This document shows, in pieces, positions 1,868-38,840 of a DNA stretch of 64,000 nt. A program made the translations under genes and the position numbers. This stretch comes from Armatimonadota bacterium (GTDB taxonomy: Bacteria; Armatimonadota; UBA5829; DSUL01): assembly GCA_040769165.1 (NCBI GenBank), contig JAXGLP010000001.1, positions 1,451,702 through 1,515,701 of the forward strand, given 5' to 3'. How positions within the stretch are numbered: position 1 is the first letter of the stretch; every line of letters starts with the position of its first letter. The notes under the pieces are model-generated. The model searched no databases. It saw only the letters and a program-made list of their open reading frames with translations, and was not told where the DNA came from.

Positions 1868-2566
1868 ATGCGGATTCTACTGGTATCCGACGACGAGCGC
1901 TCCATAGCCGGGGTCCGGCGTGAACTGGTGCTGGCCAACCATCAGGTGCTCTGGTGCGCCAGCGACAGCGACTCGCTGGCGGATGCGCTGGCAGCCATGG
2001 CGCCCGAGGCGCTGGTGCTCGACATGGCCGGGTCCGGCCCCGGGGCACGCACAGTTCGCCAGAGACTCGAAAACGAGTTCGCAATCCCTCCCATGCCCAC
2101 ATTCGCCCTCATCCACAGCGAAGCTCTTCCCGACTTCGACCTGGCGTGGGGAGCGGACGACTTCGTGGTTGTCCCGGCGGCGGCCGGTGAACTGGCGGTC
2201 AGAATCCGGCTGCTCTTCTGGACGCAAAGCCGGATTCGCGAAGAGGGGTCTATCAGCTTCGGCGATCTGGTTGTGGATTTCGCGAACTACGAAGTGCGCG
2301 CCAGCAGCCGCGCGCTCGACCTCACATACAAGGAGTTCGAGCTTCTGAAGTATCTGGTAACCCACCGCAGCCGCGTGCATACCCGCGAGTCGCTTCTTGC
2401 CCGGGTGTGGGGCTACGACTACTTCGGAGGCGAGCGCACCGTCGACGTTCACATCCGCAGGCTTCGCGGGAAACTCGGCCCCGAGTACGCCGACGTCATC
2501 GAAACGGTTCGCGGAGTCGGCTACCGCTTCGCGCCCCCGCGGCGCACTGACGGAACAGAAGATTAA
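1868..2566 (+). CDS. OmpR/PhoB-family winged-helix response regulator, atypical receiver (GlnR-like orphan regulator)
   Basis: Receiver domain with DD pair (LLVSDDE) and candidate Asp (LVLDM), but no conserved Lys in the expected position (VVVPAAAG where KP is expected). C-terminal OmpR-type winged helix (TYKEFELLKYL...VDVHIRRLRGKL...VRGVGYRF). Lies directly upstream of amtB-glnK-glnD. Confidence 0.8.
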   Translation: MRILLVSDDERSIAGVRRELVLANHQVLWCASDSDSLADALAAMAPEALVLDMAGSGPGARTVRQRLENEFAIPPMPTFALIHSEALPDFDLAWGADDFVVVPAAAGELAVRIRLLFWTQSRIREEGSISFGDLVVDFANYEVRASSRALDLTYKEFELLKYLVTHRSRVHTRESLLARVWGYDYFGGERTVDVHIRRLRGKLGPEYADVIETVRGVGYRFAPPRRTDGTED

Positions 2567-2600
2567 CATCCCCGAAACACAGCCGTAACATCCGCACCCC
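2563..2600 (+). promoter_or_regulatory. Candidate GlnR-box-like tandem a-site/b-site repeat upstream of amtB
   Basis: TTAAC-n6-GAAAC-n6-GTAAC-n6-ACCCC, read directly from the sequence about 50 nt upstream of the amtB ATG. It resembles the actinobacterial GlnR box gTnAc-n6-GaAAc-n6-GtnAC-n6-GAAAc; the last b-site is degenerate. Confidence 0.3.
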
Positions 2601-2647: not shown

Positions 2648-3886
2648 ATGGTGACGACAGACAGCGGCGATACAGCGTGGATGCTCGCATCCACGGCCAT
2701 GGTGATGCTGATGACACCCGGGCTTGCGCTGTTCTACGCAGGAATGGTGCGGGCGAAGAACGTGCTCGGGACTATGATGCACAGCTTTGTGATGCTCGGA
2801 ATGGTGGGGGTAACGTGGGTTCTGTGGGGCTATGGCCTCTCATTCGGTGGCGACGGAGCGCTGATTGGCAACCTGAGCTGGTTCGGGCTTGCCGGAGTCG
2901 GCGATCTTCCGAATGCGGATTACGCGCCGACTATTCCGCACTCGCTCTTTGCGATGTATCAGGGCATGTTCGCCATAATCACCCCCGCCCTCATCTCGGG
3001 AGCGCTCGCGGAGCGGATGCGATTCGGGGCATTTCTCTGGTTCATGGCGCTGTGGTCCACGGTTGTGTACACGCCAATCGCGCACTGGGTGTGGGGTAAT
3101 GGCGGCTGGCTGAGAACCCTTGGCGCACTCGATTTCGCGGGAGGCACGGTCGTTCATATATCATCGGGCAGCGCGGCTCTCGCCGGAGCAATACTGCTCG
3201 GACGAAGGTTGCGCCTCGGGCACGAGGACCTTGCTCCGCATAACGTCACGATGACGGTTCTGGGGGCGGCGATTCTCTGGTTTGGATGGTTCGGATTCAA
3301 CGCCGGCAGCGCGCTGGCCGCTAACGGCCTCGCGTCGGCGGCGTTCCTGACCACCAACACGGCGGCGGCGGCGGCGACACTGAGCTGGCTGCTCGCGGAG
3401 CGCATTCATACTGGCAAGGCGACGGCGCTGGGAGCGGCGTCCGGCTGTGTGGCGGGGCTGGTTGCCATCACCCCTGCAGCCGGTTTCGTTCCGGCGTGGG
3501 CCGCGGTTATCATAGGTTTTGTGGTGAGTTTCCTGAGCTACGGCGCCATCCGCCTCAAGACCAGGCTGCGCTATGACGACGCTCTGGACGTTGTGGCGGT
3601 CCATCTCACCGGAGGAGCGTTCGGCGCTCTGGCGACCGGGCTGTTTGCCTCCCGAGCCGTGAACCAGAACGGCGCCGACGGGCTTTTCGCCGGAGGGGGC
3701 TTCGCGCTTCTCGGGCGGCAGGCGCTTGCTGTGAGCGCAACTGCGGCCTTCTCGTTTCTGGTGTCGTGGGCAATACTGAGGGCTATCAGTCTTGCAGTCC
3801 CTCTGCGTCTTGACCGCGATGACGAGACCGTCGGGCTGGACCTGTCGCAGCACGGTGAAGTCGGCTACAATCTGGAAGCCGTGTGA
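2648..3886 (+). CDS. amtB: Ammonium transporter (Amt family)
   Basis: Typical Amt sequence (DTAWMLASTAMVMLMTPGLALFYAGMVR..., multiple TM segments). Start taken at ATG 2648, with GGAGAG 7 nt upstream; the track ORF begins at TTG 2642. Confidence 0.9.
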   Translation: MVTTDSGDTAWMLASTAMVMLMTPGLALFYAGMVRAKNVLGTMMHSFVMLGMVGVTWVLWGYGLSFGGDGALIGNLSWFGLAGVGDLPNADYAPTIPHSLFAMYQGMFAIITPALISGALAERMRFGAFLWFMALWSTVVYTPIAHWVWGNGGWLRTLGALDFAGGTVVHISSGSAALAGAILLGRRLRLGHEDLAPHNVTMTVLGAAILWFGWFGFNAGSALAANGLASAAFLTTNTAAAAATLSWLLAERIHTGKATALGAASGCVAGLVAITPAAGFVPAWAAVIIGFVVSFLSYGAIRLKTRLRYDDALDVVAVHLTGGAFGALATGLFASRAVNQNGADGLFAGGGFALLGRQALAVSATAAFSFLVSWAILRAISLAVPLRLDRDDETVGLDLSQHGEVGYNLEAV

Positions 3887-3930
3887 TCCCGGGCGCCGGC
3901 CCGGCGTGTTCATCTTGAAAGGACAGACAG

Positions 3931-4272
3931 TTGACCAAAGTCGAAGCGATCATACGCCCGAACAAGCTGGAGGACGTGAAAGCGGCGCTGGACGCGCTCG
4001 GAGTGCAGGGCATGACGGTAACGCACCTGATGGGCTCGGGCAAGCAGCGCGGGCGGACGCAGCACTACAGGGGACAGGAGTACGTCGTCAACCTCCTCGA
4101 CAAGACGAAGATCGAAACCGTTGTTTCGGACGATCAGGTGGACGAGATCGTCAAAGCCATCACAAAGGCGGCATCGACAGGCGAGATCGGGGACGGCAAG
4201 ATATTCCTGTCGCGCATTGACGACGCCATCAGAATCCGCACGGGCGAATCGGGCGACTCCGCCCTCAGGTAG
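3931..4272 (+). CDS. glnK: PII nitrogen regulatory protein
   Basis: 113 aa, MTKVEAIIRPNKLEDVKAAL...; T-loop with Tyr (HYRGQEY). TTG start with AAAGGA RBS. Immediately downstream of amtB. Confidence 0.9.
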   Translation: MTKVEAIIRPNKLEDVKAALDALGVQGMTVTHLMGSGKQRGRTQHYRGQEYVVNLLDKTKIETVVSDDQVDEIVKAITKAASTGEIGDGKIFLSRIDDAIRIRTGESGDSALR

Positions 4273-4378: not shown

Positions 4379-7006
4379 GTGGCAGGGCCCAAAGAAGCGC
4401 CTTATGATCAGTCTTGGATTGCACAGGCACGCAAGGACCTGACCTCTCTGGCCATGGTCGAAGACCTTGCCGATTTCGTCACCGCGCGACGGAGCGAGGT
4501 GATCGAGCGCGCGGCGGACCTGCCGGGCGAGGCGCGCACGCGCCTCCTGAGCGATCTGATTGACATGGTCGTTCGCCGCATGCTCGAAGTTGCCTGCGAG
4601 CCCACCGATTCCACGCCGAGCCTGCTTTCGCAGGCGGAACGATCGCTGTCTATTGTGGCGACAGGCGGCTACGGGCGGCGCGAACTGGCCCCGTTCAGCG
4701 ATGTGGATATCAACTTTATCGCCGCCTCCGAGGACGATCCGGAAGTCGACGCTATCACCCGGCGCATGTTCCGCCTCATTATGGATGTCCTGCTTTCGGG
4801 GGCGAAGCTGAAGGTCGGATATGCCTACAGGCTAGTCGGAGAAGCCGGTGCCCTGCACCACCAGAATCAGACAGCTCAGCTCGACGCGCGGTTTGTGGCC
4901 GGGAGCCGGGAGGTGTACCAGTCCTTTCAAGACGAGCTTCGCCGCAGCATCCAGCCTGTCGCCTTCATTCACGACAAGATGAAGGAGCGCGAGGCGGTTA
5001 TAGCCAGGCAGGGGACCTCGCTCTATCTTGTGGAGCCGAACATCAAGGAGGGCGAGGGCTCGCTGCGCGATCTTCAGCTCGCGGGTTGGCTGGCTCAGGC
5101 GGCGTACGGATTCGAGAGCCGAACCGTGTGGGAGGATATGCGCATGCACGGATTGCTTTCGACAGCCGAGACAGCCGAGGCCGCCGAGGCAAGGGAGTTC
5201 TTTTCGCGGTTGCGCTGGGAGATGCACGTTGCGGCGGGCAAGCAGGCGGACACACTGACAGTGCCAAAGCAGGAAAGCGCGGCGGCGAGTCTGGGATATG
5301 CGGACACCCCGGAGGAGTCCGGCGTCGAGAAGCTGATGCGCGACTACTACCGGCATGCCGAGGTGGCCCGGCGAACGGCAGAGAAGGTGGTGAGGCGGGC
5401 AACGGGGCTGCAGCTCGAACTCGAGCACGGCCTCGACGCAAGGGACGGCAGGATTATCCTGCAGAATCCCGAGGCGTTCCAGAACGATCCCGCGGCCTGC
5501 ATTCGCGCATTCGCATACTGCCAGCGCTATGGGCTCACCTTCGACCAGCCCGTGATTGACGCGATACGCGCGGCGACCGCGAGTTGCCCCGCGCCGATTC
5601 ACGACCCCGAAGCCGCGAAGCTGTTCCTTATGATTCTGGGCGGCGCCAACGTCGCCACGACGCTGACGAGCATGGCACACTGCGGGGTGCTGCAGTGGTT
5701 CGTTCCGGAGTTCGGGCGCGTTATGCGGCTGGTGCCGTATGATCCGGCGCACGAGTTCACGGTAGGATGGCATTCGCTCACGGTTGTGCAGCACTGCGAG
5801 CGCCTCGGCACGAGCGGCGACGAGGACATGCGCAGGCTGTACTCAACGCTTCGCCAGCCCGAACTGCTGTATCTGCTGGCGCTTGTGCACGACAGCGGCA
5901 AGGCCGTACGGGGCGAGGAGCATGCCGAATCCGGCGCCCGGATAGCGGCGATGGCCGGGAAGCGGCTCGGACTGGACACGGAATCCGTTGAACGGCTGCA
6001 GTTCCTCGTCCGCAATCACCAGCTTATGTCGGACACCGCGCGGCTGCGCGACCTGACACTGAGAAAGACGGTTGACGATTTCACGGCAGTCGTGGACGAG
6101 GTTGATACCCTCACGATGCTTTTCATCTTCACGAATGCGGACATTCTGTCTGTCGGTTCCAGGGCGTGGAGCGAGGTGCAGGGTCGTTTCCTGCGCGAGT
6201 TGTATTTCCGCGCGGAGCGCGCCATTCTCACCCGCGCCCCCATTTCCGACACGGACGAGGACATGGCTTTGCATCGCAGCAGAGTGCGGCGCGAACTCTC
6301 GATCACGTCCCTGCCCGAGAAAGCCGTCGACGAGCACATAGCCCTGATGCCCGCGATGTATCTCCTCAACACCGGCCCCGAGGAGATGGCCGCGCACATC
6401 GCCGCGATTCAGCGGGCTCGCAACGGGCAGCCCTCGGCTGACCTTCGCACGGAGCCGGGATCGGGCTTCACGGAACTCACCGTGTGCGCGCTGGACGACC
6501 CGGAGCCGGGCCTGCTTTCGAAGATTGCCGGGGCACTGTGGGCGATCGACGTAAATGTCCACGCGGCTCAGGTGTTCACCCGGAAGGGGCAGGACAAGGT
6601 CGCGCTCGACCAGCTCTATGTTGACTTCGAGGGCAAGCCCCTGCCCGAGTTCAAGAAGGCTCAGGTTGAGAAGGAGCTTACGGAAGTGCTGAGGGGCGAC
6701 CAGACCGTGCACGGGCTTCTCGCCGAGCGGAACAAGGAGCTGAAGCCCGACTACAGTTCGCTGTCGCTCGAGGTGCTGAACCATCTGTCTGAGCAGCACA
6801 CGGTCATTGAGGTGCACGCAAGCGATCAGCCGGGGCTGCTGTACCGGTTCACCCGCGCAATCGCCAGCCTGGGCTGGGATATTCATTCGGCGAGGGTGAG
6901 CACATGGGGCGCCGAAGCCCGGGACGCGTTTTACGTGACGGCTCGCGGCGGCAAACTGGGCCCCGACGCCGCCGATCGGCTCGAGGAGGCTCTGAAACGG
7001 GCCTGA
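4379..7006 (+). CDS. glnD: [Protein-PII] uridylyltransferase/uridylyl-removing enzyme
   Basis: 875 aa. N-terminal nucleotidyltransferase (GGYGRRELAPFSDVDINF), HD domain (HDSGK), two C-terminal ACT-like regions. GTG start assumed; the exact start is uncertain. Confidence 0.85.
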   Translation: MAGPKEAPYDQSWIAQARKDLTSLAMVEDLADFVTARRSEVIERAADLPGEARTRLLSDLIDMVVRRMLEVACEPTDSTPSLLSQAERSLSIVATGGYGRRELAPFSDVDINFIAASEDDPEVDAITRRMFRLIMDVLLSGAKLKVGYAYRLVGEAGALHHQNQTAQLDARFVAGSREVYQSFQDELRRSIQPVAFIHDKMKEREAVIARQGTSLYLVEPNIKEGEGSLRDLQLAGWLAQAAYGFESRTVWEDMRMHGLLSTAETAEAAEAREFFSRLRWEMHVAAGKQADTLTVPKQESAAASLGYADTPEESGVEKLMRDYYRHAEVARRTAEKVVRRATGLQLELEHGLDARDGRIILQNPEAFQNDPAACIRAFAYCQRYGLTFDQPVIDAIRAATASCPAPIHDPEAAKLFLMILGGANVATTLTSMAHCGVLQWFVPEFGRVMRLVPYDPAHEFTVGWHSLTVVQHCERLGTSGDEDMRRLYSTLRQPELLYLLALVHDSGKAVRGEEHAESGARIAAMAGKRLGLDTESVERLQFLVRNHQLMSDTARLRDLTLRKTVDDFTAVVDEVDTLTMLFIFTNADILSVGSRAWSEVQGRFLRELYFRAERAILTRAPISDTDEDMALHRSRVRRELSITSLPEKAVDEHIALMPAMYLLNTGPEEMAAHIAAIQRARNGQPSADLRTEPGSGFTELTVCALDDPEPGLLSKIAGALWAIDVNVHAAQVFTRKGQDKVALDQLYVDFEGKPLPEFKKAQVEKELTEVLRGDQTVHGLLAERNKELKPDYSSLSLEVLNHLSEQHTVIEVHASDQPGLLYRFTRAIASLGWDIHSARVSTWGAEARDAFYVTARGGKLGPDAADRLEEALKRA

Positions 7007-7032: not shown

Positions 7033-7371
7033 ATGAAACTCGTGATGGCGGTCATCCGGCCGCACAAACTGCAGGAGGTGAAGAACGCCCTATCGGAGAT
7101 AGGCCTGGCAGGCCTGACTGTGACAGAAGTGCGGGGGCACGGAAGGCAACGCGGCCAAGTCGAGAAGTACCGCGGTCTTGAGTATTCAATCGATCTGCTG
7201 CCCAAAGTGAAAATCGAAGTTGTCTGCAGCGACTCTCAATCCGAGGACGTGATTGAGATCATCGTGCGCGCGGCAAGAACAGGCGAAGTCGGGGACGGGA
7301 AAGTATTCGTCCTCCCTGTCGAGGAGTCGGTAAGAGTCCGAACCGGCGACAGGGGTCCCGGGTCGCTCTGA
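7033..7371 (+). CDS. glnB: PII nitrogen regulatory protein
   Basis: MKLVMAVIRPHKLQEVKNALSEIGLAGLTVTEVRGHG...YRGLEY. Start at ATG 7033 inside track ORF 6904..7371. Confidence 0.9.
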   Translation: MKLVMAVIRPHKLQEVKNALSEIGLAGLTVTEVRGHGRQRGQVEKYRGLEYSIDLLPKVKIEVVCSDSQSEDVIEIIVRAARTGEVGDGKVFVLPVEESVRVRTGDRGPGSL

Positions 7372-7425: not shown

Positions 7426-8847
7426 ATGGCAACCACACCGGCAGAAGTTCTGCAGATGATCAGGGACGTCGAAGCGCGCATCGTTGACGTGCGCTTCACC
7501 GACCTCCCGGGCGTCTGGCAGCATTTTTCAATACCAGCAGAGGATCTGGACGAAGCGGCATTCGAGGACGGTCTGGGCTTCGATGGCTCCAGCATCCGGG
7601 GGTTCCAGGACATACAGGAGTCGGACATGACCCTGATGCCCGACCCGAACACCGCCTTCGAGGACACGATGGTGGAGCACCCCACCGTGGCGATTATCTG
7701 CAATGTCCACGACCCCGCCACCGGCGAACGCTACAGCCGCGATCCCCGCTTCATCGCCGCAAAGGCCGAGCAGTATCTGATGTCAACGGGAATAGGCGAC
7801 ACGAGCTACTGGGGCCCCGAAGCCGAGTTCTTTATCTTTGACGACGTCCGCTTCGGACAGACGGCGAACGCGGGTTTCTATTCGGTTGACTCGAGCGAAG
7901 GCATCTGGAACTCCGGCCGCGATGAAATGCCGAATCTCGGCTACAAGATCCGGCACAAGGAAGGCTACTTCCCCTGCCCGCCCATGGACAGCACCCACGA
8001 CCTGAGGAGCGAGATGCTCCTCGCGCTCAGAGACGCGGGTGTAGATGCCGAGATGCACCATCACGAAGTCGGGACGGGGGGACAGGCCGAGATAGACCTC
8101 CGCTACGACACGCTGTTGACGATGGCCGATAAGCTGATGAAGTACAGGTACATCGTCAAGAACATCGCCAACCAGCACGGCAAGACGGTGACGTTCATGC
8201 CCAAGCCCCTGTTCGAGGACAACGGGTCGGGCATGCATGTCCACTCGAGCATCTGGAAGGGCGGGCGCAACGTGTTCTGGGACGAGACCGGCTATGCGGG
8301 GCTTTCGGACACCGCGCGGTACTACATCGGGGGGATTCTGAAACACGCGCCTGCGCTTCTCGCTTTGTGCGCCCCCACGACGAACTCGTACCGCAGGCTC
8401 GTTCCCGGGTACGAAGCGCCGATCAACCTCGTCTATTCGCAGAGGAATCGCAGCGCGGCGGTGAGGATTCCGGCCTACCTGCAGAGCGAGAAATCGAAGC
8501 GGATCGAGTTCCGCTGCCCCGACCCCAGCGCGAACGGGTATCTGTGCCTGGCTTCGATCCTGATGGCGGGTCTGGACGGGGTCCAGAACAGGATTGATCC
8601 CGGCCAGCCGATTGACAAGAACATCTACGACCTGCCGCCGGAGGAATCGAAGACGATTAGAGGCACTCCGGGCGACCTGCATGAGGCGCTCAATGCCCTG
8701 GAGGCCGATCACGAGTTCCTGTTGAAGGGCGACGTGTTCACTCCAGACGTCATTGAGACCTGGATCGGCTACAAGCGAAAGAAAGAGGTGGACGCGGTGC
8801 GCCTGCGGCCGCACCACCACGAGTTCCATCTCTACTTCGACATCTAG
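7426..8847 (+). CDS. glnA: Glutamine synthetase type I
   Basis: 473 aa, canonical GSI sequence throughout. AAGGAAGAG RBS upstream. Confidence 0.95.
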   Translation: MATTPAEVLQMIRDVEARIVDVRFTDLPGVWQHFSIPAEDLDEAAFEDGLGFDGSSIRGFQDIQESDMTLMPDPNTAFEDTMVEHPTVAIICNVHDPATGERYSRDPRFIAAKAEQYLMSTGIGDTSYWGPEAEFFIFDDVRFGQTANAGFYSVDSSEGIWNSGRDEMPNLGYKIRHKEGYFPCPPMDSTHDLRSEMLLALRDAGVDAEMHHHEVGTGGQAEIDLRYDTLLTMADKLMKYRYIVKNIANQHGKTVTFMPKPLFEDNGSGMHVHSSIWKGGRNVFWDETGYAGLSDTARYYIGGILKHAPALLALCAPTTNSYRRLVPGYEAPINLVYSQRNRSAAVRIPAYLQSEKSKRIEFRCPDPSANGYLCLASILMAGLDGVQNRIDPGQPIDKNIYDLPPEESKTIRGTPGDLHEALNALEADHEFLLKGDVFTPDVIETWIGYKRKKEVDAVRLRPHHHEFHLYFDI

Positions 8848-11967: not shown

Positions 11968-14900
11968 CTATCTGATGTCCCTGGGCCGTATGGCGGCTTC
12001 ACCTGCCGCATCCAACCCGACCCACCCCGGCTTTGCCACGACAACGATGTCTGACTGGGTCCTCGGCAGGAGCGTACTCACCAGATAGGTCTTGTACGCC
12101 TCACAGCTCGAGATGCCTGTAACCACGACAGCCACCCCCGCAGCAGGAATCTCCATCTCAGGCGCCCAGACAAACACGCCGCGGGTGCCTGTGCCGTCCG
12201 AAACGCCGCTTCCGTCGTCAATGTAGAACCAGTCCCGCCCCTTCAGCGTAACCACTCCGGACGTCTGGATCAGGAGGCCGATGTTGTTCAGACCGAGGCC
12301 TTTGCGTATGCCCCGCTGTGCCACGGAACCTCCAACCATCCAGTCTTCGCCACCAATGTATCCGCCGCGCATGAATACGGGGACTATGTCACCCAGTCCG
12401 GATTGCCTGGCCGCGGCAGCGGCGATGAACCGCTCACCGTCCTCATTAGTGCTGAGTTTTCCGACGATGTCGGCGCGCATGCCTGTGTCTAATGCGTGCC
12501 CATCGAGGTGTACGCGGATGCCGGCATTCCGCCCTTCGTCCTCGACATAGAAGACACCTGGCGCCGCATAGGTTACAGGAAGGCCCTGCAGAAAGACCGG
12601 CGCCCCGTCGGGTTTGGCCTTCCCTTCCGAGAGGGGCATGCCAGATGCACGCACCAGCCCGAATTTTGCCTGCGGTACCACAGCACCCAGCGCGCCTGCC
12701 GGACTTGTTCCGCACCAGGTGAGGGGGTCACCCGCCCCACTATCTGAATGATAGACAAGAGACCTGTTTCCCCCGGGCGAGAAGGCACAGACAAGACCAT
12801 TGCTCGTATAGTCCGTGCTGTTGTGCGAGAAGTCCACGATGAGGTTGTCGTTGCCGTTGTAATCAAACGGAGTGGTGAACGTGAACGTCTTCCAGCCGGT
12901 GGCGGATACCGTCTCACTGGCGGCCTGATACACCGTTGTCCACGGCGTGCATTCCCATGCCGCCGTGGCGTAGGAAGAAGCTGTTGTGTGCTTCATCCGG
13001 ATGTTCCAGTTATCCAGCGTCTGACCCGGAAGCTGCGAGATGTTCAGCGCCAGCGAGACTATCGTCGACGGACCCGCCCCAAGCTCCGATGCGAGGTATA
13101 TTACCTGTGTCCTGGAGTCGTGATACAAGGTGTGCAGCGGGTAGCTCCAGGTCGAGTCACACGTACCGACGGTGATTGTCGAAGGAGTCGTGAACGTGTA
13201 GCACTGGCCCCCGTTGTCGGCGAGCGTGCTGTTGCCGGGCGCATCCGCCGCCTCAACGACGAAGAAGTACTCAGTCTCCCGAGCGAGCCCTTCAACGGTG
13301 ATCGAGTGCGCCGTCGCCAACGACGTCTCACTCTCAACTACCGTATAGGGGCCTCCACAGACTGTACCGACCTTCACGACTCCGATAGCCGGCTCATCGG
13401 TGGTGAACGTGATCACCACGCCAACCTCTTCGGGCAGGCTGGAAATGGCGCTGATCACAGGACCAGCGCAGTCCAGAGATGCAGAACGCGTCTTCGTGAC
13501 GTTCGTGCCGCCCGTACCGTCATCGGCATCAAGATAGGTTACGGACAGCGTCCCCTGATGCGCAGTCTGCAGGGTTCCATCCTCGGGCCCCGCTTCTCCC
13601 GAACCTGTGGAAAGCGGACTCTCCGCATTGCTGAAGACGCCAGGAGTGGCCGGGACTTCGGCAAGAATGACAGTCTCCAGGTCACCGGCGGAACTCTCCG
13701 CGGTCACAGTGGCGGCGCCCATCCCTGCAAGGCCGGCATCTCGCAGCTCTATCACAACATGGTCAGCGCACGAGTAGATATCCCTGTCCAGCGCCAGACG
13801 TCCATCGGAAGGATGGAACCCGGCACTCCCGCTCAATGCCATCAGGACTGACGGCTCAGTCTCGTCGCTGCTCGCGATCACGAGAGTCCCCTCGTATTCG
13901 CCCACGGCGTCCGGCTGGAACTTCACATCGAATGTCACCGGGTCCCCTCCCGCCGGTATGGTGAACGGTGTTGCGGGCAGATTCTCCACGGAGAACACGT
14001 CACCGGCTGCCATTGCCGCGATGTCGGGCTGTTTGGGCAGAATCGGGCCCGGATACACGGGCCTGTCGCCCTCAGGAACGGCGTCAGGCGACAGCTCGCC
14101 TCCGAACGGGTGCGCGCAGTACCACTCCTGTTCCGCGGACATGACGTGGTCTGCCTCAATCGGTGGATCGAGCACGACATTGTCAAAATAGTCGTGCTTC
14201 ACTTCAGCTCCTCTGTAGGCGAATAGACCGATCCGGCCGGGACCGGCAAGACCTGAATCCGTCCCGCTCCACGCCAGGTTGCCGTTGAAGTACACCCGTA
14301 TCTGCGACCCCTGGAAGCTCACGTTCACAAGGTTGGGGGCCTCGCCCGTGGCAAGGTAAGGCGAAGACGTCCAACCGCCACTCAGCCAGGTCTCAGTGCT
14401 TCCGATGAATCGGATCACCCAGAACAAGCCTTGTGCGTTGATACCCACACCGTAAGCACTTCCCACTCCTCCATCGTAGACGAAATCATCCGAGCAGCGG
14501 AAGCACAGGCCCGACACGTAGCTTGTGTATCCGGTTCTGCGAAGGGTGACACTGAGGGACCCGTCTGCCCATTGATCCCCCGCATATAGCGACTGATAGG
14601 ACTGTCCGGAGGCCGTACTGTAGGCACTGTACTCACCCTGCAGGACGGTCCATGTGGGCGGTGGCAGCGGCTCCCATCCCTGAGCGGCCCCGTCTTCGAA
14701 GTCCTCCCGGTACTGGGCACCCGAAATACGCACATTGGAGACCTCCAGATCACCCCGTCCCGTGTTTGCTATCGTCACATGCTCGGTGCGCGCGTTATTG
14801 ATGAATACGGGACCGAAGGGCAGTTGGAGGTCATCCGCGGGCGGCAGGCTGTCCGTTACTTCGATCTCCGGCTGGAGGGGAATCACGTGTAGACTGACCA

Positions 14901-17900
14901 CACGAATCCAGTGGTGCTGAGTTGTCATGTTGGAGAACCGCACCTGTGCAGAGTAGTCCCCGGCTGTCAGGGCATTCACATCCGCTGTCAGAGACACCCT
15001 GACGGTAGCACTCTCACCCGGTGCCAGTACGCCGCCGGCCTGGCTGCACGCAGCCAGCCTCGAGCCCGAGACCGCAGCCCAGGTGAGCGCCTCGGTCCCC
15101 ATATTCTGGAGCGTATAGTCCGCCCCGTCCGGAATGAATGGTCCGCCCACCTGTCCGGTACTGGTGAATCCACTGGAAGGGGAAACCCTGAGCGCGTCGG
15201 CCGGCTCCACACCGAGCCGCAACTGTGGCACCTGTGTGCCCAGGGCGCCAGCCGGGGAACTGCCGCACCATGTGAGGGGGTCACCCGCTCCGCTATCTGA
15301 CTGATAGACAAGTGACCTGCTACCTCCCGGCGAGAAGGCACAGACCAGGCCGTTGCTCGTATAGTCCGTGCCGTTGTGCGAGAAGTCCACAATCAGATTG
15401 TCGGAACCGTTGTACTCGAACGGCGTGGGGAATGTGAACGTCTTCCAGCCGGTTGAGGTTACAGGATAACTGGAAGCCTGAAACACGGTTGTCCACGGCG
15501 AGCACTCCCACAACGCCGATGTGAACGAGGACGCGGGAGTGTGCTTCATCCGGATGTTCCAGTTATCCAGGGCCTGTCCCGGGATCTGTGAAACGTTCAG
15601 AGACAGTGAGGTAATCGTCCAGGGAGCCCCTCCAAGTTCCGAGGCAAGGTAGATTACCTGTGTCCTGGAGTCTTCATAGTAGGTATGCAGCGGGTAGCTG
15701 AACGTTGTGGCGCATGTGCCAACGGTTATTGTGGACGCAGTCGTAAACGGGTAGCACTGGCCGCCGTTGTCATCCGTCGCCACAGTGCCAACCACATCGG
15801 TTGCCTCCACAACGAAAACATAGCCAGTGGCGGGACTCAGCCCTGTCAGTTCAACCGTGTGCGCGGTGCCCCAAATCGGGTCCTCTGCTGCGATGATTTC
15901 CGGCCCACCGCAGACCATGGAGCAGTGCACGCGGCCCAGAGTGGGAACATTGGTGGCAAAGGTGACCGTTGCCGCCACACCGCTACTGGCATTCACGGCC
16001 ACATTCGTAATTGATATCGGCCTGCAGTCCGCAGTGGCCGTATCGGTCTTCGTCTCAGGCAGCCCGCTTCCATTATCAGCATCCTCGTACGAAGCTGTGA
16101 TCAACGCGCCGTCGCCAATCTGAAGAACCCCGTCGCCCTGCACGGGTTCTGCACCGGCCGTTTCTACCTGTCCCGCGAACACGCCCGGCTCTGGCGTCTC
16201 CGCAAGCGTCACAGTCTCTGTATCCCCTGTCGAACTGGAGACAGTCACAGGACATTCTCCGGCAGCCGCAAGATCGGAGTCGAGCACCTTGACAGAGACC
16301 GGCTCGCCACAGCGGTAGGTGACCTTGTCGAGCATGACCACCCCATCGGCCGACGCGCTTACGAGATTGCAGGCGACCAGCGCAAAATCCTGGTCGGTCG
16401 CATCAGCATTTCCCGGAACACCGTCACCACCAATCGAGACACCACGAACGACGATGTCAACAGCGCCGCTGGTCCCGGCGGGCAGCCGCACCAGTTCGTA
16501 GTTGTTGCGTACATCCGGCGCGCCGCCTGTCTGTGAGACATCCTTGTTGAAGACGTTTCCACGGTACAGGACGCCGTCCACGTACACCTCGAGATCAAGA
16601 TTGTTGACGTAGGCAGCCCCGGACAGCGCGCCCGGAGGGTCAGTCCACGCCAGAGACACTACCAGAGGTTCGCCCCCATCAGCCACAACCCCGCCAAGAT
16701 GGTATTGCTCCCCCGGCCCGGTGAGAATCTCCGTCTGGTCAACGACCTTCCTCGGCCTCGCTGCGTCGAAAGCGAAAGCGAGGTTGATGATCCCGAATCC
16801 CTGGCTGTTGCTGGGGAAGTTGTCGTTGGCGTAGAGCCCGGTCATGTGCCGCCCGGAATGAATGATGTAGGCCTTGAGCAGGGCCGGGCTTGGCTCGGCG
16901 ATACCGTACGTCCGCGAAAGGAAGTTATAAACGAGGGAACCGCAACCGGCCGCCGCCGGACACGAGTGGCTCGTTCCCGACGACCAGCAGTACAGAGTCT
17001 GCCCCGCTGGCATGTACTTGTCACAGACGCTGTCGCCAGTGTAGGCCGGGCTGGTAGATGTTGATGCCGCACCCTGAATGTGGGTGCCTGGCGCCTGGAT
17101 CTCCGGCTTGGCGCGGCCATCGTCGCACGGTCCACGGCTGGAGAAGTCTATGACGTCCTGCGCGTTGTTCGCCCCTGATGGTGGAACGTCGCAGCCATCT
17201 GTTATGCCGAGAGTATCGTAGTTCTCGCTGGCGCCGACCGAAATGACGTTCTTCCCGGTGGCGGGGCTGCCGATGCTGTACGACCCTGACCCTTCGTTTC
17301 CAGCGGAGAAGAAGAAGGCCATGGGCTGCTGTCCGGTAACCGTGGGCTGGCAGTCCCGGACAAAGCTATCGTACATCTGCGAGTCCGACGTGTAGTCGCC
17401 ATAGGCGTCAGTACCCCAGGAGTTGCTGCTGATGCGAACTCCCCACGCATACTGGCTGCTGACCATTGCAGCCTCGTTGATCGAAGACGGCCACAGTCCG
17501 CTATCAGAGAACACCTTGGTATGAGCCATCCTGCCGTAGGGCGAGATGCCCAGGCCGTAGTGGAACCCTGCCGCATCCTGAAACGGAGAGCCAGTGCTGT
17601 TGTTGCAGCCGCCCACAATGGAGGTATTGATGTTTCCGTGCCCGTCAACGCCGTTCGGGTTGGTGATCGTTGGAGACCCGCCGGGCGCAATTCCGGCAAA
17701 CACGACGCGTGAAGCAAGAGCGGGATCGCCCAGTTGCCTGAACTCGGAATTTCCCGGTGACGAGGCATTGCCGTTGTCAAAACCATCGTCAGTGACCACA
17801 ACAACGGGGTAGGCTTCAGGATCCGTTGGGAATCCGTACGATTCGAGGAAGGACAGGTAGCCAGGCCCGGTTGGCGCCGTCCTGCCCGCGTTGAGATTGT

Positions 17901-18792
17901 CGGCGAGGATCTGACCCTGCCGCTCGCAGTTGAGGTGTTTCTCGAGATACGGCTCTATCCACACCACCCCCGGCACAGCCGCCAGAGACTCCAGCAGACT
18001 GCCTGCGATTTCTATGGAGACGTTGATATATCGTCCGCTCAGAACCTCGCGCGGCGGAACGATAACAGACTGTGCATCCGCGGCGATCTGGTCTGCCGCC
18101 TGGACGGCATCCTCGCCGTAGTTGAAAACCTGCACGGTGACCCGGACAGGATCCTCCTTGCCACAGGCTTCATCCAGAGCGGGGCTCAGCGCAAACCACG
18201 GATGATACTCACCAACAAAGGCCGTGTAAGGCTCGGACAGGAGCGCTGATGCGAGTCCGGGGGACGACGCTTCGTCAACCCATATGAGATAGGCGTTTTG
18301 TGGAATGTAGTGGACAATGCTGGCCCCCACGGACTTGAGAAGGGCGAGGTCCTCGTCCACAGGCGGCGCGACAAATTGAACCAGCATCAGCCGGCTCTTC
18401 GCCTCAGAGCTGGCCGTCAGGCGTTCGGGCAACGCGAATTCGGGCTTGCGCGTATCTATCTTTTGGCGGCGCAGTTCAATGAAGTTGAAGTCTTCGCGCA
18501 CCACGGCGCCAGTGCTGTTCTCAAGCGTGGACTTCAGACTTGCCGGGGCTTCGTACACCAGATAGGAGTCGCGGCGCGCCAGCAGCTTCGCCCCGGCGGC
18601 ATCCAACCGCGTGATGTCTGCCCGGGCATCGGCCGACACCAGAACACGGACTTTCGTGTCCTGGTCCTCCCCGGCAATCGCCGGCCCAAACGCAACCGCG
18701 AACAGGAAAGCACACGAAAGAGCAAACGCCAGACGATAGCGCTTGCTAGACTTCCAGTAACCGAAGCACTCGACCAAACCGTTGGTCTTCAT
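11968..18792 (-). CDS. Giant secreted subtilisin-like serine protease (peptidase S8), 2274 aa, carrying the shared C-terminal module
   Basis: Signal peptide plus propeptide. S8 catalytic triad motifs VVTDDGFD (Asp), DGHGNINTS (His), SGTSHSCPAAAG (Ser). Then FN3-like and beta-sandwich repeats. C-terminal ~200 aa shared with six other proteins. AAGGAGGGGG RBS. Confidence 0.85.
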   Translation of the reverse strand: MKTNGLVECFGYWKSSKRYRLAFALSCAFLFAVAFGPAIAGEDQDTKVRVLVSADARADITRLDAAGAKLLARRDSYLVYEAPASLKSTLENSTGAVVREDFNFIELRRQKIDTRKPEFALPERLTASSEAKSRLMLVQFVAPPVDEDLALLKSVGASIVHYIPQNAYLIWVDEASSPGLASALLSEPYTAFVGEYHPWFALSPALDEACGKEDPVRVTVQVFNYGEDAVQAADQIAADAQSVIVPPREVLSGRYINVSIEIAGSLLESLAAVPGVVWIEPYLEKHLNCERQGQILADNLNAGRTAPTGPGYLSFLESYGFPTDPEAYPVVVVTDDGFDNGNASSPGNSEFRQLGDPALASRVVFAGIAPGGSPTITNPNGVDGHGNINTSIVGGCNNSTGSPFQDAAGFHYGLGISPYGRMAHTKVFSDSGLWPSSINEAAMVSSQYAWGVRISSNSWGTDAYGDYTSDSQMYDSFVRDCQPTVTGQQPMAFFFSAGNEGSGSYSIGSPATGKNVISVGASENYDTLGITDGCDVPPSGANNAQDVIDFSSRGPCDDGRAKPEIQAPGTHIQGAASTSTSPAYTGDSVCDKYMPAGQTLYCWSSGTSHSCPAAAGCGSLVYNFLSRTYGIAEPSPALLKAYIIHSGRHMTGLYANDNFPSNSQGFGIINLAFAFDAARPRKVVDQTEILTGPGEQYHLGGVVADGGEPLVVSLAWTDPPGALSGAAYVNNLDLEVYVDGVLYRGNVFNKDVSQTGGAPDVRNNYELVRLPAGTSGAVDIVVRGVSIGGDGVPGNADATDQDFALVACNLVSASADGVVMLDKVTYRCGEPVSVKVLDSDLAAAGECPVTVSSSTGDTETVTLAETPEPGVFAGQVETAGAEPVQGDGVLQIGDGALITASYEDADNGSGLPETKTDTATADCRPISITNVAVNASSGVAATVTFATNVPTLGRVHCSMVCGGPEIIAAEDPIWGTAHTVELTGLSPATGYVFVVEATDVVGTVATDDNGGQCYPFTTASTITVGTCATTFSYPLHTYYEDSRTQVIYLASELGGAPWTITSLSLNVSQIPGQALDNWNIRMKHTPASSFTSALWECSPWTTVFQASSYPVTSTGWKTFTFPTPFEYNGSDNLIVDFSHNGTDYTSNGLVCAFSPGGSRSLVYQSDSGAGDPLTWCGSSPAGALGTQVPQLRLGVEPADALRVSPSSGFTSTGQVGGPFIPDGADYTLQNMGTEALTWAAVSGSRLAACSQAGGVLAPGESATVRVSLTADVNALTAGDYSAQVRFSNMTTQHHWIRVVSLHVIPLQPEIEVTDSLPPADDLQLPFGPVFINNARTEHVTIANTGRGDLEVSNVRISGAQYREDFEDGAAQGWEPLPPPTWTVLQGEYSAYSTASGQSYQSLYAGDQWADGSLSVTLRRTGYTSYVSGLCFRCSDDFVYDGGVGSAYGVGINAQGLFWVIRFIGSTETWLSGGWTSSPYLATGEAPNLVNVSFQGSQIRVYFNGNLAWSGTDSGLAGPGRIGLFAYRGAEVKHDYFDNVVLDPPIEADHVMSAEQEWYCAHPFGGELSPDAVPEGDRPVYPGPILPKQPDIAAMAAGDVFSVENLPATPFTIPAGGDPVTFDVKFQPDAVGEYEGTLVIASSDETEPSVLMALSGSAGFHPSDGRLALDRDIYSCADHVVIELRDAGLAGMGAATVTAESSAGDLETVILAEVPATPGVFSNAESPLSTGSGEAGPEDGTLQTAHQGTLSVTYLDADDGTGGTNVTKTRSASLDCAGPVISAISSLPEEVGVVITFTTDEPAIGVVKVGTVCGGPYTVVESETSLATAHSITVEGLARETEYFFVVEAADAPGNSTLADNGGQCYTFTTPSTITVGTCDSTWSYPLHTLYHDSRTQVIYLASELGAGPSTIVSLALNISQLPGQTLDNWNIRMKHTTASSYATAAWECTPWTTVYQAASETVSATGWKTFTFTTPFDYNGNDNLIVDFSHNSTDYTSNGLVCAFSPGGNRSLVYHSDSGAGDPLTWCGTSPAGALGAVVPQAKFGLVRASGMPLSEGKAKPDGAPVFLQGLPVTYAAPGVFYVEDEGRNAGIRVHLDGHALDTGMRADIVGKLSTNEDGERFIAAAAARQSGLGDIVPVFMRGGYIGGEDWMVGGSVAQRGIRKGLGLNNIGLLIQTSGVVTLKGRDWFYIDDGSGVSDGTGTRGVFVWAPEMEIPAAGVAVVVTGISSCEAYKTYLVSTLLPRTQSDIVVVAKPGWVGLDAAGEAAIRPRDIR
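12660..13800 (-). repeat. Internal duplicated unit 2 of the S8 protease gene (approx. aa 1665-2045)
   Basis: Second copy '...ITFTTDEPAIGVVKVGTVCGGP...NLIVDFSHNSTDYTSNGLVCAFSPGGNRSLVYHSDSGAGDPLTWCG'. About 65-70% aa identity to unit 1 by eye. Confidence 0.6.
15210..16350 (-). repeat. Internal duplicated unit 1 of the S8 protease gene (approx. aa 815-1195)
   Basis: Protein segment '...DGVVMLDKVTYRCGEPVSV...VTFATNVPTLGRVHCSMVCGG...NLIVDFSHNGTDYTSNGLVCAFSPGGSRSLVYQSDSGAGDPLTWCG' recurs about 850 aa downstream. The antisense track ORFs 14988..15392 and 12573..12917 share 'WTSRTTARTIRA'. Coordinates approximate. Confidence 0.6.
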
Positions 18793-19831: not shown

Positions 19832-20631
19832 GAAGATCCCTCCGTTCCCGGCGGCGCCTCGCCCAGGTACGCCTCAATCACCCCGGGGTCATTGCGGATG
19901 GCTTCCGGCGCCCCGGCGGCGATGAGCTTTCCATAGTCAAGAACGTAGATCGTCTCGCAGATGCCCATCACGAACCGCATGTCGTGCTCAATGAGTAGAA
20001 TGCTCAGAGAGCGCTCATCCCTGAGCCGCCGCAGGAGGTGCATCAGATCCTGCGTCTCCTGCGTGTTCAACCCGGCCGCGGGCTCGTCGAGCAAGAGCAC
20101 CGAAGGCCCCGGCGCAAGCGCACGCGCAATCTCGAGGCGCCGCTGCTCGCCATAGGGCAGACTTCGGGCGGGCACGTCCTTCCACCGCTCAATGCCGAGC
20201 ATTTCCAGGAGAGATACGGCCTGTGAGCGCAGCTCGCTCTCTCCAGCCCGCTGCCGTGCCCCCGAGAACAGCGCATCGGCAAGGGTCTGCGGCGAGCGCA
20301 GGTGCGAGCCGATGAGCACGTTGTCGAGCGCCGTGAGCGACCCGAACAGGCGGATGTTCTGGAACGTGCGGCAGATGCCATGGCGAGCCACCGCATGTGC
20401 GGGCAGCCCGGCAATCTCCTGCCCCATGAGCCTGATGCTGCCCGAATCCGGCTGGCAAAGCCCGGTAATCAGGTTGAAAACCGTCGTCTTGCCGGCGCCA
20501 TTCGGGCCAATGAGCCCGACAAGCCCACGCCCGGGCAGATCCAGCGAGAGTGCGTCCACGGCTACCAGTCCGCCGAAGCGCTTCGTCAGCTGGCGAATCT
20601 CAAGCAAGGCCACCGCCGGTCTCCTTGCCAC
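19828..20631 (-). CDS. livG: Branched-chain amino acid ABC transporter ATP-binding protein
   Basis: GPNGAGKTT, ...TFQNIRLF...; LivG-like. The start may be the downstream GTG, since the upstream start would overlap livM by ~30 nt. Confidence 0.8.
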
Positions 20632-21583
20632 GCGAACGAAGCGATGCCCAACTGAATTCGGAGGTGCCGAGCAGCCCCTGCGGCCGCACGAGCATGCAGA
20701 TCACCAGCAGCGCGGAGTAGATGACCATGCGGTAATCCGCGAACTCGCGCAGCGTCTCCGGAAGCACCGTCAGCACAACCGCCGCAATCACGGCCCCGGT
20801 CGTGCTGCCCAGCCCGCCCAGAACGACCATAATGATGATCTCGATGCTGCGGATGAAGTTGAACGAATCCGGCTGAAGATATCCGTCGAAGTGCGCATAG
20901 AGCGCTCCCGCGCAGCCGGCCATCGCCGCGCTGAGCACGAACGCCATCACTTTGTAGGATGTAATGTTGATCCCAAGCACGCTGGCCGCGGTCTCGTCGT
21001 CGCGCAGAGCCTGCAGCGCGCGTCCCTGCCGCGAATTCAGCAGGTTTCGCGACAGCCAGACGATGCCCACGGTGAACAGCCCGATCCAGAAGATCGAGTT
21101 GATGGGCGCGATAGAGAAGCCGCGAGCGCCGCCTACCCGGTCAATGTTGATGAAGATCACCCGGATCAGCTCGCCGAATCCAAGAGTCGCAATCGCGAGA
21201 TAGTCGCCGCGCAGGCGCAGCGACGGGAGCCCGACAATAAGCCCCGCGACAGCCGCGGCGACCGATCCGGCCACCACCGCAGCGAGCAGAACAGCACTGT
21301 CCGCGAGCCATGCAGGGAAGCTCGCCAGCCCGAGCGAGGCTTCCATCCACTCCCGGCCGAAATGGCTGAGCGACGCGCCCGTGTATGCCCCCACCGCATA
21401 GAAACCCGCATGCCCGATGGAGAACTGGCCAGCATACCCGTTGATGATGTTCAGGCTCACCGCCAGCATCACGCTGAAGCAGGAGAGCAGGAGCACACGC
21501 GAAACGTAGTGGTTGGGGTCAACGGTAAGCTGAAGCAGAAGCAGCAGCCCCAGGACAAGAAGTGCTTTGCCCCCTCGGAGCAT
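20600..21583 (-). CDS. livM: Branched-chain amino acid ABC transporter permease
   Basis: Polytopic membrane protein with LivM-type motifs (...NIINGYAGQFSIGHAGFYAVGAY...). Confidence 0.8.
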   Translation of the reverse strand: MLRGGKALLVLGLLLLLQLTVDPNHYVSRVLLLSCFSVMLAVSLNIINGYAGQFSIGHAGFYAVGAYTGASLSHFGREWMEASLGLASFPAWLADSAVLLAAVVAGSVAAAVAGLIVGLPSLRLRGDYLAIATLGFGELIRVIFINIDRVGGARGFSIAPINSIFWIGLFTVGIVWLSRNLLNSRQGRALQALRDDETAASVLGINITSYKVMAFVLSAAMAGCAGALYAHFDGYLQPDSFNFIRSIEIIIMVVLGGLGSTTGAVIAAVVLTVLPETLREFADYRMVIYSALLVICMLVRPQGLLGTSEFSWASLRSRGKETGGGLA

Positions 21584-21586
21584 CGG

Positions 21587-22489
21587 CTAGGCCCTGTCCG
21601 TGACGGGCGACCCGAACAGCCCGGTCGGCTTGACGATAAGGACGACGATGAGAATGGCGAACACGATGCCGTCGCGATAGCTGGACGCGAGATACCCGAC
21701 GACCATGATCTCCGCAATCCCCATCAGCAGGCCGCCGGCGATGGCCCCCCAGACATTCCCGATGCCTCCCAGAACCGCCGCCACAAAGGCCTTCAGTCCG
21801 GGCTGGACCCCCATAAACGGCAGGATCTGCGGATTGTTCATCGGGACGAGCACAGCGGCCGCTCCGGCAAGCGCCGACCCGAGCACGAAAGTGAATGAGA
21901 TGACGCGGTCAACGTTCACTCCCATCAACGAAGCGGCCTCTCTATCGAAACTGACCGCGCGCATGGCCCGGCCCATGGACGTGTGGTGGATAATGAACTG
22001 CAGTCCCAGCCCGAGCGCAAGCGAAACGGCAACGATGATAGCCTGCTGATTGCTGATAACGACGCCGCACGCGGAGACGACAGTGCGCGCGGGAACGAGC
22101 TGCGGGAACAGTCTCGGTTCCGACCCGAACGCGAGCTGAGCCGAATACTCGAGGAAGAGCGAGACGCCGATGGCCGCAATCAGAAGTGTCAGCCGCGGCG
22201 CCGCCCGCAGAGGCCGATACACGATCCGCTCAATTCCGTACCCGAGCAGTCCGCTTCCGGACATCGCGATGAGCATAACAACCAGCGCGCCTGCCGGCGA
22301 CCCCATCGCCAGCCCCCCCAGAGCCCCGGCTGTGAAGAACGCGACATACGCTCCCGCCATATACACATCGCCGTGCGCGAAATTGATGAGGCGTAGAATA
22401 CCGTAAACCATCGTGTAGCCGAGAGCAATGAGAGCGTACGCGCTTCCCCACACGATGCCGTTGACGAGTTGCTGAAGGAACTCCTGCAA
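21587..22489 (-). CDS. livH: Branched-chain amino acid ABC transporter permease
   Basis: MQEFLQQLVNGIVWGSAYALIALGYTMVYGILRLINFAHGDVYM..., typical LivH. Confidence 0.85.
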   Translation of the reverse strand: MQEFLQQLVNGIVWGSAYALIALGYTMVYGILRLINFAHGDVYMAGAYVAFFTAGALGGLAMGSPAGALVVMLIAMSGSGLLGYGIERIVYRPLRAAPRLTLLIAAIGVSLFLEYSAQLAFGSEPRLFPQLVPARTVVSACGVVISNQQAIIVAVSLALGLGLQFIIHHTSMGRAMRAVSFDREAASLMGVNVDRVISFTFVLGSALAGAAAVLVPMNNPQILPFMGVQPGLKAFVAAVLGGIGNVWGAIAGGLLMGIAEIMVVGYLASSYRDGIVFAILIVVLIVKPTGLFGSPVTDRA

Positions 22490-22520
22490 CTACGGCGTTC
22501 CCGTCTCCCGGGTCAAGTTG

Positions 22521-23663
22521 TCACTTGCGCGGCTCAATGGTTGTTACGTAGTGAACGGCCTTCCCGCGAATCTGCAGCACCACAGCCGATTTCTCGGCGT
22601 TCCGCTCGGGGTTTATCGTTATCTTGCCGGTAACCGCCGGATAGTCCTTCGTCTGGGCAATCTGCTTGCGGATTGTCGCCGGCTCGAGATCTTCCGAGCG
22701 CCTCATCGCTTCGGCCAGTATCCACGCCGCATCGTAGCCGAGAGCAGCCAGAGAGTTCGGCGCATGCCCGTAGCGCTTCGTGAACGACTGGACGAACTTG
22801 CGTACGTGCGGCTCATCGGAATCGGCGGAGTAGTGGTCGCTATGGTAGCAGCCCTCCAGAGAGTTGCCCGCGCGCTCAATGAGGCTCGCCGACGTCCAGC
22901 CGTCGCCGCCCATCATCGGGACCGTGATACCCAGTTCACGGGCCTTGCGTCCAATAAGAGCGACCTCCGTGTAATACCCCGGGACGTAGATCACATCGGG
23001 GTTCGTCGCGCGTATCTTCGTGAGCTGCGAGCTGAAGTCTATGTCCCCGGCGCGAAAGACCACATCACAGACGATCTTGCCGCCCATCTTCGGGAACTCC
23101 TCTTTGAAGACCTCCGCAAGGCCGGTGCTGTAGTCGGAGCCGTTGTCCCAGAGCACGGCCGCCGTCTTCGCGTTCAGATGCTCCGCGGCAAAACGCGCCA
23201 TCACGTAGCCCTGAAACGGGTCAATGAAGCATACGCGGAAGATGTTGTCGCCCGCTCTGGTAACTTCGGGGTTCGTGGACGAGGGGCTGATCATGGGGAT
23301 CTTGCGCATCTGCGCGACGGGCGCGGCGGCCAGGCTGTTGGAGCTGGCGACATCGCCGAGCAGGGCCACCACGCCGCTCTGGTCAACGAGCTTCGTGACG
23401 GCCGTGCGAGCCTCGGCGGGAATTCCCCGGTCGTCCTCGATGACCAGCTTCATCGGCTTGCCGTTGATGCCCCCCGCGGCGTTGATCTCGTCCACGGCGA
23501 GCTGGATGCCGTCCCTGGTGGTGAGTCCGAAGTCCGCTGTCGGACCCGTGAGAGGCATAAAGACGCCCACGAGCGGCTCGGACGAGCGCTTCGCGCAGCC
23601 TGCCAGGAGCCCCGCCGCAATAGCGGCGCAAAGAAGCGCCGCGCCGTGCCGTCGAATGTGCAT
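22521..23663 (-). CDS. livK: Branched-chain amino acid ABC transporter substrate-binding lipoprotein
   Basis: Start at ATG 23663 (GGAGGAA RBS) inside the longer track ORF. Lipoprotein signal ...LLAGC. Periplasmic binding protein type I fold motifs. Confidence 0.8.
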   Translation of the reverse strand: MHIRRHGAALLCAAIAAGLLAGCAKRSSEPLVGVFMPLTGPTADFGLTTRDGIQLAVDEINAAGGINGKPMKLVIEDDRGIPAEARTAVTKLVDQSGVVALLGDVASSNSLAAAPVAQMRKIPMISPSSTNPEVTRAGDNIFRVCFIDPFQGYVMARFAAEHLNAKTAAVLWDNGSDYSTGLAEVFKEEFPKMGGKIVCDVVFRAGDIDFSSQLTKIRATNPDVIYVPGYYTEVALIGRKARELGITVPMMGGDGWTSASLIERAGNSLEGCYHSDHYSADSDEPHVRKFVQSFTKRYGHAPNSLAALGYDAAWILAEAMRRSEDLEPATIRKQIAQTKDYPAVTGKITINPERNAEKSAVVLQIRGKAVHYVTTIEPRK

Positions 23664-23703
23664 GGTGTTCCTCCCCGTGCTCCGAGGGGGAGGAGGCAGT
23701 GTG

Positions 23704-24576: not shown

Positions 24577-24578
24577 CG

Positions 24579-25667: not shown

Positions 25668-25688
25668 GGGTCCAGGTGGCGCGAACGC

Positions 25689-38776: not shown

Positions 38777-38840
38777 CAGTTCCGAAGCGAACTGACTGAT
38801 TCGAATGAGGGGCCCGGAGCGGAAACGCTCCGGGCCTTCT
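36450..38840 (+). repeat. Near-identical ~2.4-kb direct repeat, copy A (paralog 1 body plus terminator)
   Basis: Identical track ORFs at 36552..36842 and 42233..42523 give an offset of 5681 bp. The protein alignment shows roughly 15 substitutions over ~760 aa. Boundaries approximate. Confidence 0.8.

Follow-up and report, generated by a model that had tools for sequence, protein, structure and literature searches.

The 64,000-nucleotide (nt) stretch analysed here (the window; contig JAXGLP010000001.1, positions 1,451,702 to 1,515,701) comes from an Armatimonadota bacterium and carries, directly upstream of the ammonium transporter gene amtB, a tandem repeat resembling the binding sites of the nitrogen regulator GlnR. 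The repeat is real and conserved. Probably, judging from the sequence comparisons described below, it serves as the operator of a promoter that depends on an activator and drives an amtB-glnK-glnD-glnB-glnA operon, the activator being a GlnR-type orphan response regulator whose gene adjoins the repeat. Direct observations are the motif and its conservation, the constant spacing between it and a −10-like element, the family of the regulator and the conserved DNA-contact residues of this protein. Positions are those of the window, and the features of the promoter and the putative operon lie on the forward (+) strand.

Direct reading of positions 2563-2600 yielded TTAAC-atcccc-GAAAC-acagcc-GTAAC-atccgc-ACCCC, in exact agreement with a first-pass annotation of the same DNA, which had proposed a GlnR box at this place. 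Site 1 (TTAAC, 2563-2567) contains the TAA stop codon of the regulator gene (2564-2566), an overlap that had also been recorded correctly; site 2 (GAAAC) occupies 2574-2578, and site 3 (GTAAC followed by an invariant A) occupies 2585-2590. The array ends 48 nt before the ATG of amtB at 2648, close to the ~50 nt given earlier. Its 5-nt gTnAc/GaAAc sites with gaps of exactly 6 nt, arranged as head-to-tail direct repeats, fit the published GlnR consensus gTnAc-n6-GaAAc (PMC10704036, PMC10235972) as well as the M. smegmatis form t/gTAAC-n6-Gc/aAAC. Instead of two full a-b boxes (a1-b1-a2-b2), we found three strong sites and a weak distal GGAAC; in the actinobacterial literature, one to three GlnR boxes are reported and three of four sites suffice. 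The array lies before nitrogen-assimilation genes throughout, namely before amtB in the window and in 11 relatives, glnK in locus L100, glnA in L105 and glnR in seven relatives.

The exact three-pentamer pattern, with at most three mismatches, occurred once in the 64-kb window, compared with 0.22 occurrences in shuffled sequences. A weight matrix trained solely on orthologous promoters from other genomes, the window site being excluded, assigned 31.0 bits to the array and 16.5 bits to the next unrelated match; the top scores of 300 random 64-kb sequences averaged 10.9 bits with a maximum of 20.4. The matrix scan thus supported the motif within the window and also found no equally good copy before glnA, glnD or glnB, as had been noted before. 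The second-best matches (48924-48951 and 63144-63171), located within coding regions and antisense to the gene, were rejected as chance. The looser two-site consensus KTNAC-n6-GNAAC was not enriched on its own (3 matches versus 1.7 expected in the window).

Conservation was analysed in 13 non-redundant orthologous loci encoding regulators that are 73-82% identical over the N-terminal domain; relatives were gathered by metagenome queries with this domain only and by exact-protein look-ups. The gene order regulator, amtB, P-II gene, glnD is kept, and so are a second P-II gene and glnA where the contig is long enough (amtB is absent in L100). The alignment gave the consensus TTAAC-n6-GAAAY-n6-GWAAC-A, with a mean pairwise identity of 0.86 in the pentamers versus 0.37 in the spacers and an information content of 1.38 versus 0.42 bits. 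Comparative footprinting, proposed as a check in the first-pass annotation, therefore demonstrated conservation upstream of orthologous amtB genes. Site 1 reads TTAAC in 11 of the 13 lineages and TTCAC and TTAGT in the other two; site 2 is GAAAC, GAAAT or GTAAC in all 13, between 6-nt spacers that vary on both sides; and at site 3 every one of the 13 amtB/glnK promoters has GTAAC, GAAAC or TTAAC with an A behind it, a combination also present in relatives' glnR and glnA promoters.

In three of these loci (L085, L096 and L081), the array is found intact 24-140 nt beyond the stop codon, site 1 being kept without any overlap. Since the array persists when detached from the stop codon, its conservation is not a coding artefact. 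One lineage (L100, L101) has lost amtB, so that the regulator gene is directly followed by a P-II gene and glnD, and here the array lies ~275 nt upstream of the P-II start. The array follows the −10-like element and neither the stop codon nor the start codon; the interval between array and start codon ranges from ~60 nt to over 200 nt, which argues that it behaves as a promoter element and not as a leader or translational element. In every lineage examined of the orthologous set, regulator gene and array are linked.

The fourth pentamer, ACCCC (2596-2600), had been taken for a degenerate b-site, an assignment that has to be withdrawn. With 0.43 bits, it is as unconserved as the spacers, relatives showing CGGCT, TGCCC, CGACT, GTGTT, GGGCT or GCATT at this place; it is spacer, separating site 3 from the −10 hexamer, whose first base coincides with the last base of ACCCC. 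A weak site lies upstream instead, at an a1-like position 11 bp before TTAAC (GGAAC, 2552-2556, within the C-terminal codons of the regulator gene). Eight of the 13 lineages have GAAAA, GAAGC or GTAAT at this position, two of these copies (L081, L096) being non-coding, whereas the match is poor in the other five; the mean information content is 0.9 bits. Judged by their position relative to the −10 element, the three strong pentamers appear to correspond to b1-a2-b2. The reading as a GlnR-like box consequently stands with respect to three pentamers, 6-nt gaps, conservation and the type of regulator, while its a and b labels were shifted.

The predicted −10 hexamer, CAGAAT (2600-2605), starts 10 nt after the third pentamer. 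The lineages carry TACCAT, TAGCAT, TAATAT, TATCAT, TACTAT, CACAAT or CACCAT (consensus TAnnAT), and A2, A5 and T6 do not vary among the 13. Across 19 promoters, the distance between the proximal pentamer and this hexamer is 10 nt, the exceptions being L100 (11 nt) and two glnR promoters (11-12 nt). No −35-like hexamer was found 17 nt upstream of the −10 element; site 2 occupies this would-be −35 position. Within the GlnR activation complex, the proximal b2 site sits downstream from the −35 element, a2 covers the −35 element and the protomers further upstream touch the alpha subunit (PMC10235972), and the pentamer-to-−10 spacing observed here is consistent with that geometry. Transcription is predicted to start near 2611-2613. 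The element would thus be a promoter/operator upstream of the transcript and not part of the transcribed amtB leader, in which it had originally been placed. Neither a sigma-54 −24/−12 promoter (TGGCAC-n5-TTGC) nor an NtcA palindrome (GTA-n8-TAC) was detected in 2400-2700, and matches to these patterns in the whole window were at or below chance.

The gene upstream of the array (1868-2566) codes for a protein of 232 amino acids (aa), a putative orphan regulator of the OmpR/PhoB type with an atypical receiver domain. Its sequence identifies it as a specific GlnR homologue with conserved DNA-contact residues. The N-terminal part matched the GlnR-type receiver (PF21695, GlnR_1st) with 36.7 bits at a cut-off of 27, and the C-terminal winged-helix domain (residues 149-221) matched PF00486 (Trans_reg_C) with 95 bits. 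Among solved structures, the protein came closest to GlnR of S. erythraea (8hig/8hml, E = 6.5e-46) and to the activation complex of M. tuberculosis GlnR (8hih, E = 8.8e-42), and the next OmpR-family protein after GlnR was RegX3 (E = 1.2e-24). Scores of 160, 146 and 135 bits for GlnR compared with 90 bits for RegX3 and 73 bits for PhoB place the protein closer to characterised GlnR than to other OmpR-family regulators. In species-level reference genomes, the best matches were actinobacterial GlnR proteins with ~40% identity, one of which was translated and proved to be canonical Streptomyces GlnR; no close relative emerged from this whole-regulator scan, in which the conserved motif VWGYDYFG caused actinobacterial GlnR to dominate. 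The sole named close homologue derives from an Armatimonadetes metagenome-assembled genome (MAG), and homologues of the GlnR_1st type are also labelled Dehalococcoidia and Omnitrophica. For MnmG, a marker protein encoded in the window, the best matches that carry a name are all Armatimonadota MAGs (58-73% identity), which places the window in this phylum and not among the Actinobacteria.

The recognition helix reads RTVDVHIRRLR, and the pattern RTVDVH[I/V]RR[L/I]R is invariant in the window protein, its relatives and Streptomyces GlnR. Of 14 residues listed as DNA contacts of M. tuberculosis GlnR (PMC10235972), 13 are identical (R188, T189, H193, R195, R196, R198, R171, T151, K153, W179, T211, R213 and Y217), N214 being replaced by G; the base-specific contacts of S. 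erythraea GlnR (R186, V190, R193) are all identical. The conserved lysine of the receiver is replaced (DDFVVVP), as in GlnR of Streptomyces, S. erythraea and M. tuberculosis. No kinase gene adjoins the regulator gene in the window or in the relatives, where its neighbours are amtB and a gene for a BNR or DUF6785 protein.

The same architecture was found at further promoters when the relatives' loci were scanned with a generic three-site weight matrix. All matches of at least 19 bits in ~134 kb of these loci are intergenic, in sense orientation and located before amtB, glnK, glnA or the regulator gene. In a distant member of the Armatimonadota (L105, MAG GCA_030649165.1, regulator 42% identical), a four-site array, GAAAC-n6-TTAAT-n6-GAAAC-n6-GAAAC-A-n9-TAGAAT (L105 7959-7996), lies ~150 nt upstream of one of the two glnA genes flanking the regulator gene; an array of this kind is lacking at the other glnA (1136-2464). 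Within ~60-170 nt upstream of the regulator start codon, seven relatives carry arrays of two or three sites, with a strong −10 element (TACAAT, TAGAAT or TATGAT) or AACAAT 10-12 nt further on (L082 5938-5964; L098 2831-2857; L083, L086, L088, L102 and L085), which suggests autoregulation. The expectation that the motif should recur before other nitrogen genes was therefore borne out in relatives' loci (glnA, glnK, glnR), the window itself holding no further nitrogen genes. As a negative control, ~0.95 Mb of actinobacterial glnR loci reached at most 15.5 bits, versus 22-26 bits for the relatives' sites; these loci, having no high-scoring array, were dropped as comparators for the geometry of the amtB promoter and kept as the control only. 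No boxes were found near the gene for an Abditibacteriales protein (L104, beside an MFS transporter gene) or near that for P0038 (L106, beside acetyltransferase and polyphosphate kinase genes), showing that not every protein of the GlnR_1st type belongs to this arrangement. In addition, a 20.7-bit array, ATAAC-n6-GAAAC-n6-TTAAC, was noticed on a metagenomic contig (L094 125-151) upstream of a distant, partially matched regulator homologue.

Downstream of the array, amtB (2648-3886; TIGR00836, 457.8 bits; PF00909) is preceded by GGAG at 2636-2639 and by an in-frame TTG at 2642. It is followed after 44 nt by a glnK-type P-II gene (3931-4272; PF00543, NF007946), after a further 106 nt by glnD for P-II uridylyltransferase (4379-7006; TIGR01693, 530 bits), after 26 nt by a second P-II gene, glnB (7033-7371; 112 aa, read from the sequence; relatives have syntenic P-II genes of 112 aa with a PF00543 match), and after 54 nt by glnA for a type I glutamine synthetase (7426-8847; TIGR00653, 658 bits). 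No box or promoter-like site was found in the four gaps. As these gaps are short and free of boxes and promoters, a single operon is the simplest reading: amtB-glnK-glnD-glnB-glnA are probably driven together from the amtB promoter, with glnA as the last gene. This would also explain why the first-pass annotation found no copy before glnA, glnD or glnB. A GC hairpin resembling a terminator (GCGCCGGCCCGGCGT), its T-tract being weak, is located at 3893-3907 between amtB and glnK; it might attenuate read-through into glnK-glnD-glnB-glnA.

The promoter might work as follows. The three strong pentamers (starting at 2563, 2574 and 2585), possibly together with the weak GGAAC at 2552, are 11 bp apart and would lie on one face of the helix, each bound by one winged-helix domain with the domains stacked head to tail. 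As the proximal pentamer ends 10 nt before CAGAAT and no usable −35 element is available, the regulator would replace −35 recognition and recruit RNA polymerase, as modelled on the actinobacterial GlnR activation complex, with transcription starting near 2612.

The array could be confused with an ordinary sigma-70 promoter, with TTAACA (2563-2568) as −35 and TAACAT (2586-2591) as −10 element and either no dedicated regulator site or the regulator acting as a repressor on it. A consensus scan indeed reported TTAACA-17-TAACAT with 9 of 12 matches, a result that speaks against an activator-dependent promoter. However, the supposed −10 element drifts, its T6 being kept in ~6 and its T1 in 8 of the 13 lineages (AAACAC in L083, L086 and L088), whereas the AAC core is invariant, a pattern opposite to that of −10 elements. 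Moreover, the middle pentamer, which would be mere promoter spacer, is as conserved as the outer two, and each of the 13 lineages has a better −10 element (TAnnAT) 10 nt downstream, as do the promoters of glnR and glnA. We regard a plain sigma-70 promoter as very unlikely. A by-product of coding constraint at the C-terminus and stop codon of the regulator, or a chance match, might have been suggested by the overlap of the first pentamer with the stop codon, by the conserved AGA/GAT codons preceding it and by the lack of enrichment of the loose two-site consensus. Nevertheless, sites 2 and 3 are non-coding yet conserved, the whole array survives far past the stop codon in the three loci mentioned above, and its matrix score greatly exceeds the random maxima, leaving this explanation with a negligible probability.

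Binding to direct repeats phased at 11 bp is common to all OmpR/PhoB proteins, and for Streptomyces the literature describes competition by PhoP at promoters under GlnR control and binding of MtrA to GlnR boxes. A different, PhoP- or MtrA-like regulator encoded elsewhere might thus be the main ligand of the repeats instead of the adjacent gene product. This appears very unlikely: the pentamers fit the GlnR consensus rather than the PHO box, PhoP-dependent promoters are reportedly not bound by GlnR, the adjacent regulator possesses the GlnR contact residues, and its gene is linked to the array in every lineage examined, with arrays also preceding the regulator gene itself. Several further points weigh against control of the operon by the adjoining GlnR homologue. 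We infer from sequence that the regulator binds, that it activates and does not repress, where transcription starts, that nitrogen is the signal and how far the operon extends, and the weak terminator-like hairpin behind amtB bears on the last of these. The receiver has kept both its acidic DD pair and the equivalent of Asp52, so that the regulator may still depend on phosphorylation. The window glnR does not have the autoregulatory box found in relatives; its upstream neighbour encodes a BNR-repeat protein, not DUF6785, and the gap is only 21 nt. Finally, no other nitrogen genes occur within the window, so any further members of the organism's own regulon would lie outside the analysed sequence.

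A stable GC-rich hairpin (2608-2637) is predicted where the amtB transcript would begin, immediately ahead of the ribosome-binding site. The stretch 2608-2665 has a minimum free energy of −24 kcal/mol, with a z-score of −2.7 against shuffles. The hairpin sequence is not conserved in relatives, the leaders of which differ in length and are longer. Scans of the window with Rfam and for tRNAs gave no match, so no known leader RNA or riboswitch is indicated.

Elsewhere in the window, three tandem paralogous genes (36272-44457; 834, 889 and 867 aa) each encode an N-terminal FlgD Ig-like domain and otherwise showed no Pfam match; a pattern scan revealed repeated DNA words shared among them (e.g., 37464/43145 and 38008/43689). 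A very large open reading frame of 2274 aa lies on the reverse strand (11968-18792). A run of open reading frames at 20192-27350 (568, 137, 404 and 695 aa) had no Pfam match among those tested and a third-position GC content of 0.61-0.69 versus ~0.8 elsewhere, the overall GC content being unremarkable.

The closest known systems are the actinobacterial GlnR proteins and their boxes at amtB (S. coelicolor, M. smegmatis, M. tuberculosis, S. erythraea; 8hih). They likewise comprise an OmpR/PhoB regulator with an atypical receiver, an orphan there and apparently here, and share the 13 of 14 DNA-contact residues, the head-to-tail 5-nt sites with 6-nt spacers, the proximal site between the −35 position and the −10 element (as predicted for the window), and the targets amtB-glnK-glnD and glnA. 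Overall identity is ~40%, rising to ~50-56% in the C-terminal part with the DNA-binding domain. In contrast to these systems, the host belongs to the phylum Armatimonadota, glnR is physically joined to amtB-glnK-glnD-glnB-glnA with the first strong site on its own stop codon, and three strong sites and one weak distal site take the place of two full a-b boxes; in addition, the receiver has retained its acidic DD pair. In the canonical Streptomyces glnR loci examined, no comparable box lies beside glnR.

Other regulators show partial resemblance. The pho box of E. coli PhoB (class II) also consists of direct repeats of 11 bp, ending ~10 bp before the −10 element and taking the place of the −35 element, and PhoB, too, is a winged-helix regulator contacting sigma region 4 (general knowledge and the comparison in PMC10235972). 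It differs in its half-site sequence, in being the phosphorylated partner of the PhoR kinase and in the match of its structures (73 versus 160 bits for GlnR). The PHO boxes of Streptomyces PhoP and the MtrA sites, which overlap GlnR boxes, similarly represent 11-nt direct repeats bound by OmpR-family proteins at nitrogen-gene promoters, but their core sequence is another and the regulator genes are not located beside amtB; the present analysis identified no second regulator of this sort. Bacillus GlnR/TnrA have only the name and the role in nitrogen metabolism in common with the present system, as they belong to the unrelated MerR family, to which the window protein does not belong by its Pfam assignment, and bind a palindromic operator.

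GlnR is consistently described in the literature as the actinobacterial master regulator of nitrogen metabolism, and our literature search found no paper linking it with Armatimonadota. The finding can credibly be regarded as a taxonomic extension of the known GlnR mechanism and not as a new mechanism. On balance, we lean slightly towards the view that GlnR control is not an actinobacterial speciality but is either older or was transferred between phyla, and that it operates in Armatimonadota through the module glnR-amtB-glnK-glnD-glnB-glnA, with the promoter placed in the stop codon of glnR and with autoregulation in most relatives. This would provide a model for nitrogen control in a different, mostly uncultured phylum and an independent natural set of promoters that displays the essentials, i.e., three sites, 11-bp phasing and 10 nt to the −10 element, and it raises the question of an ancestral versus a horizontally transferred origin of the GlnR system.

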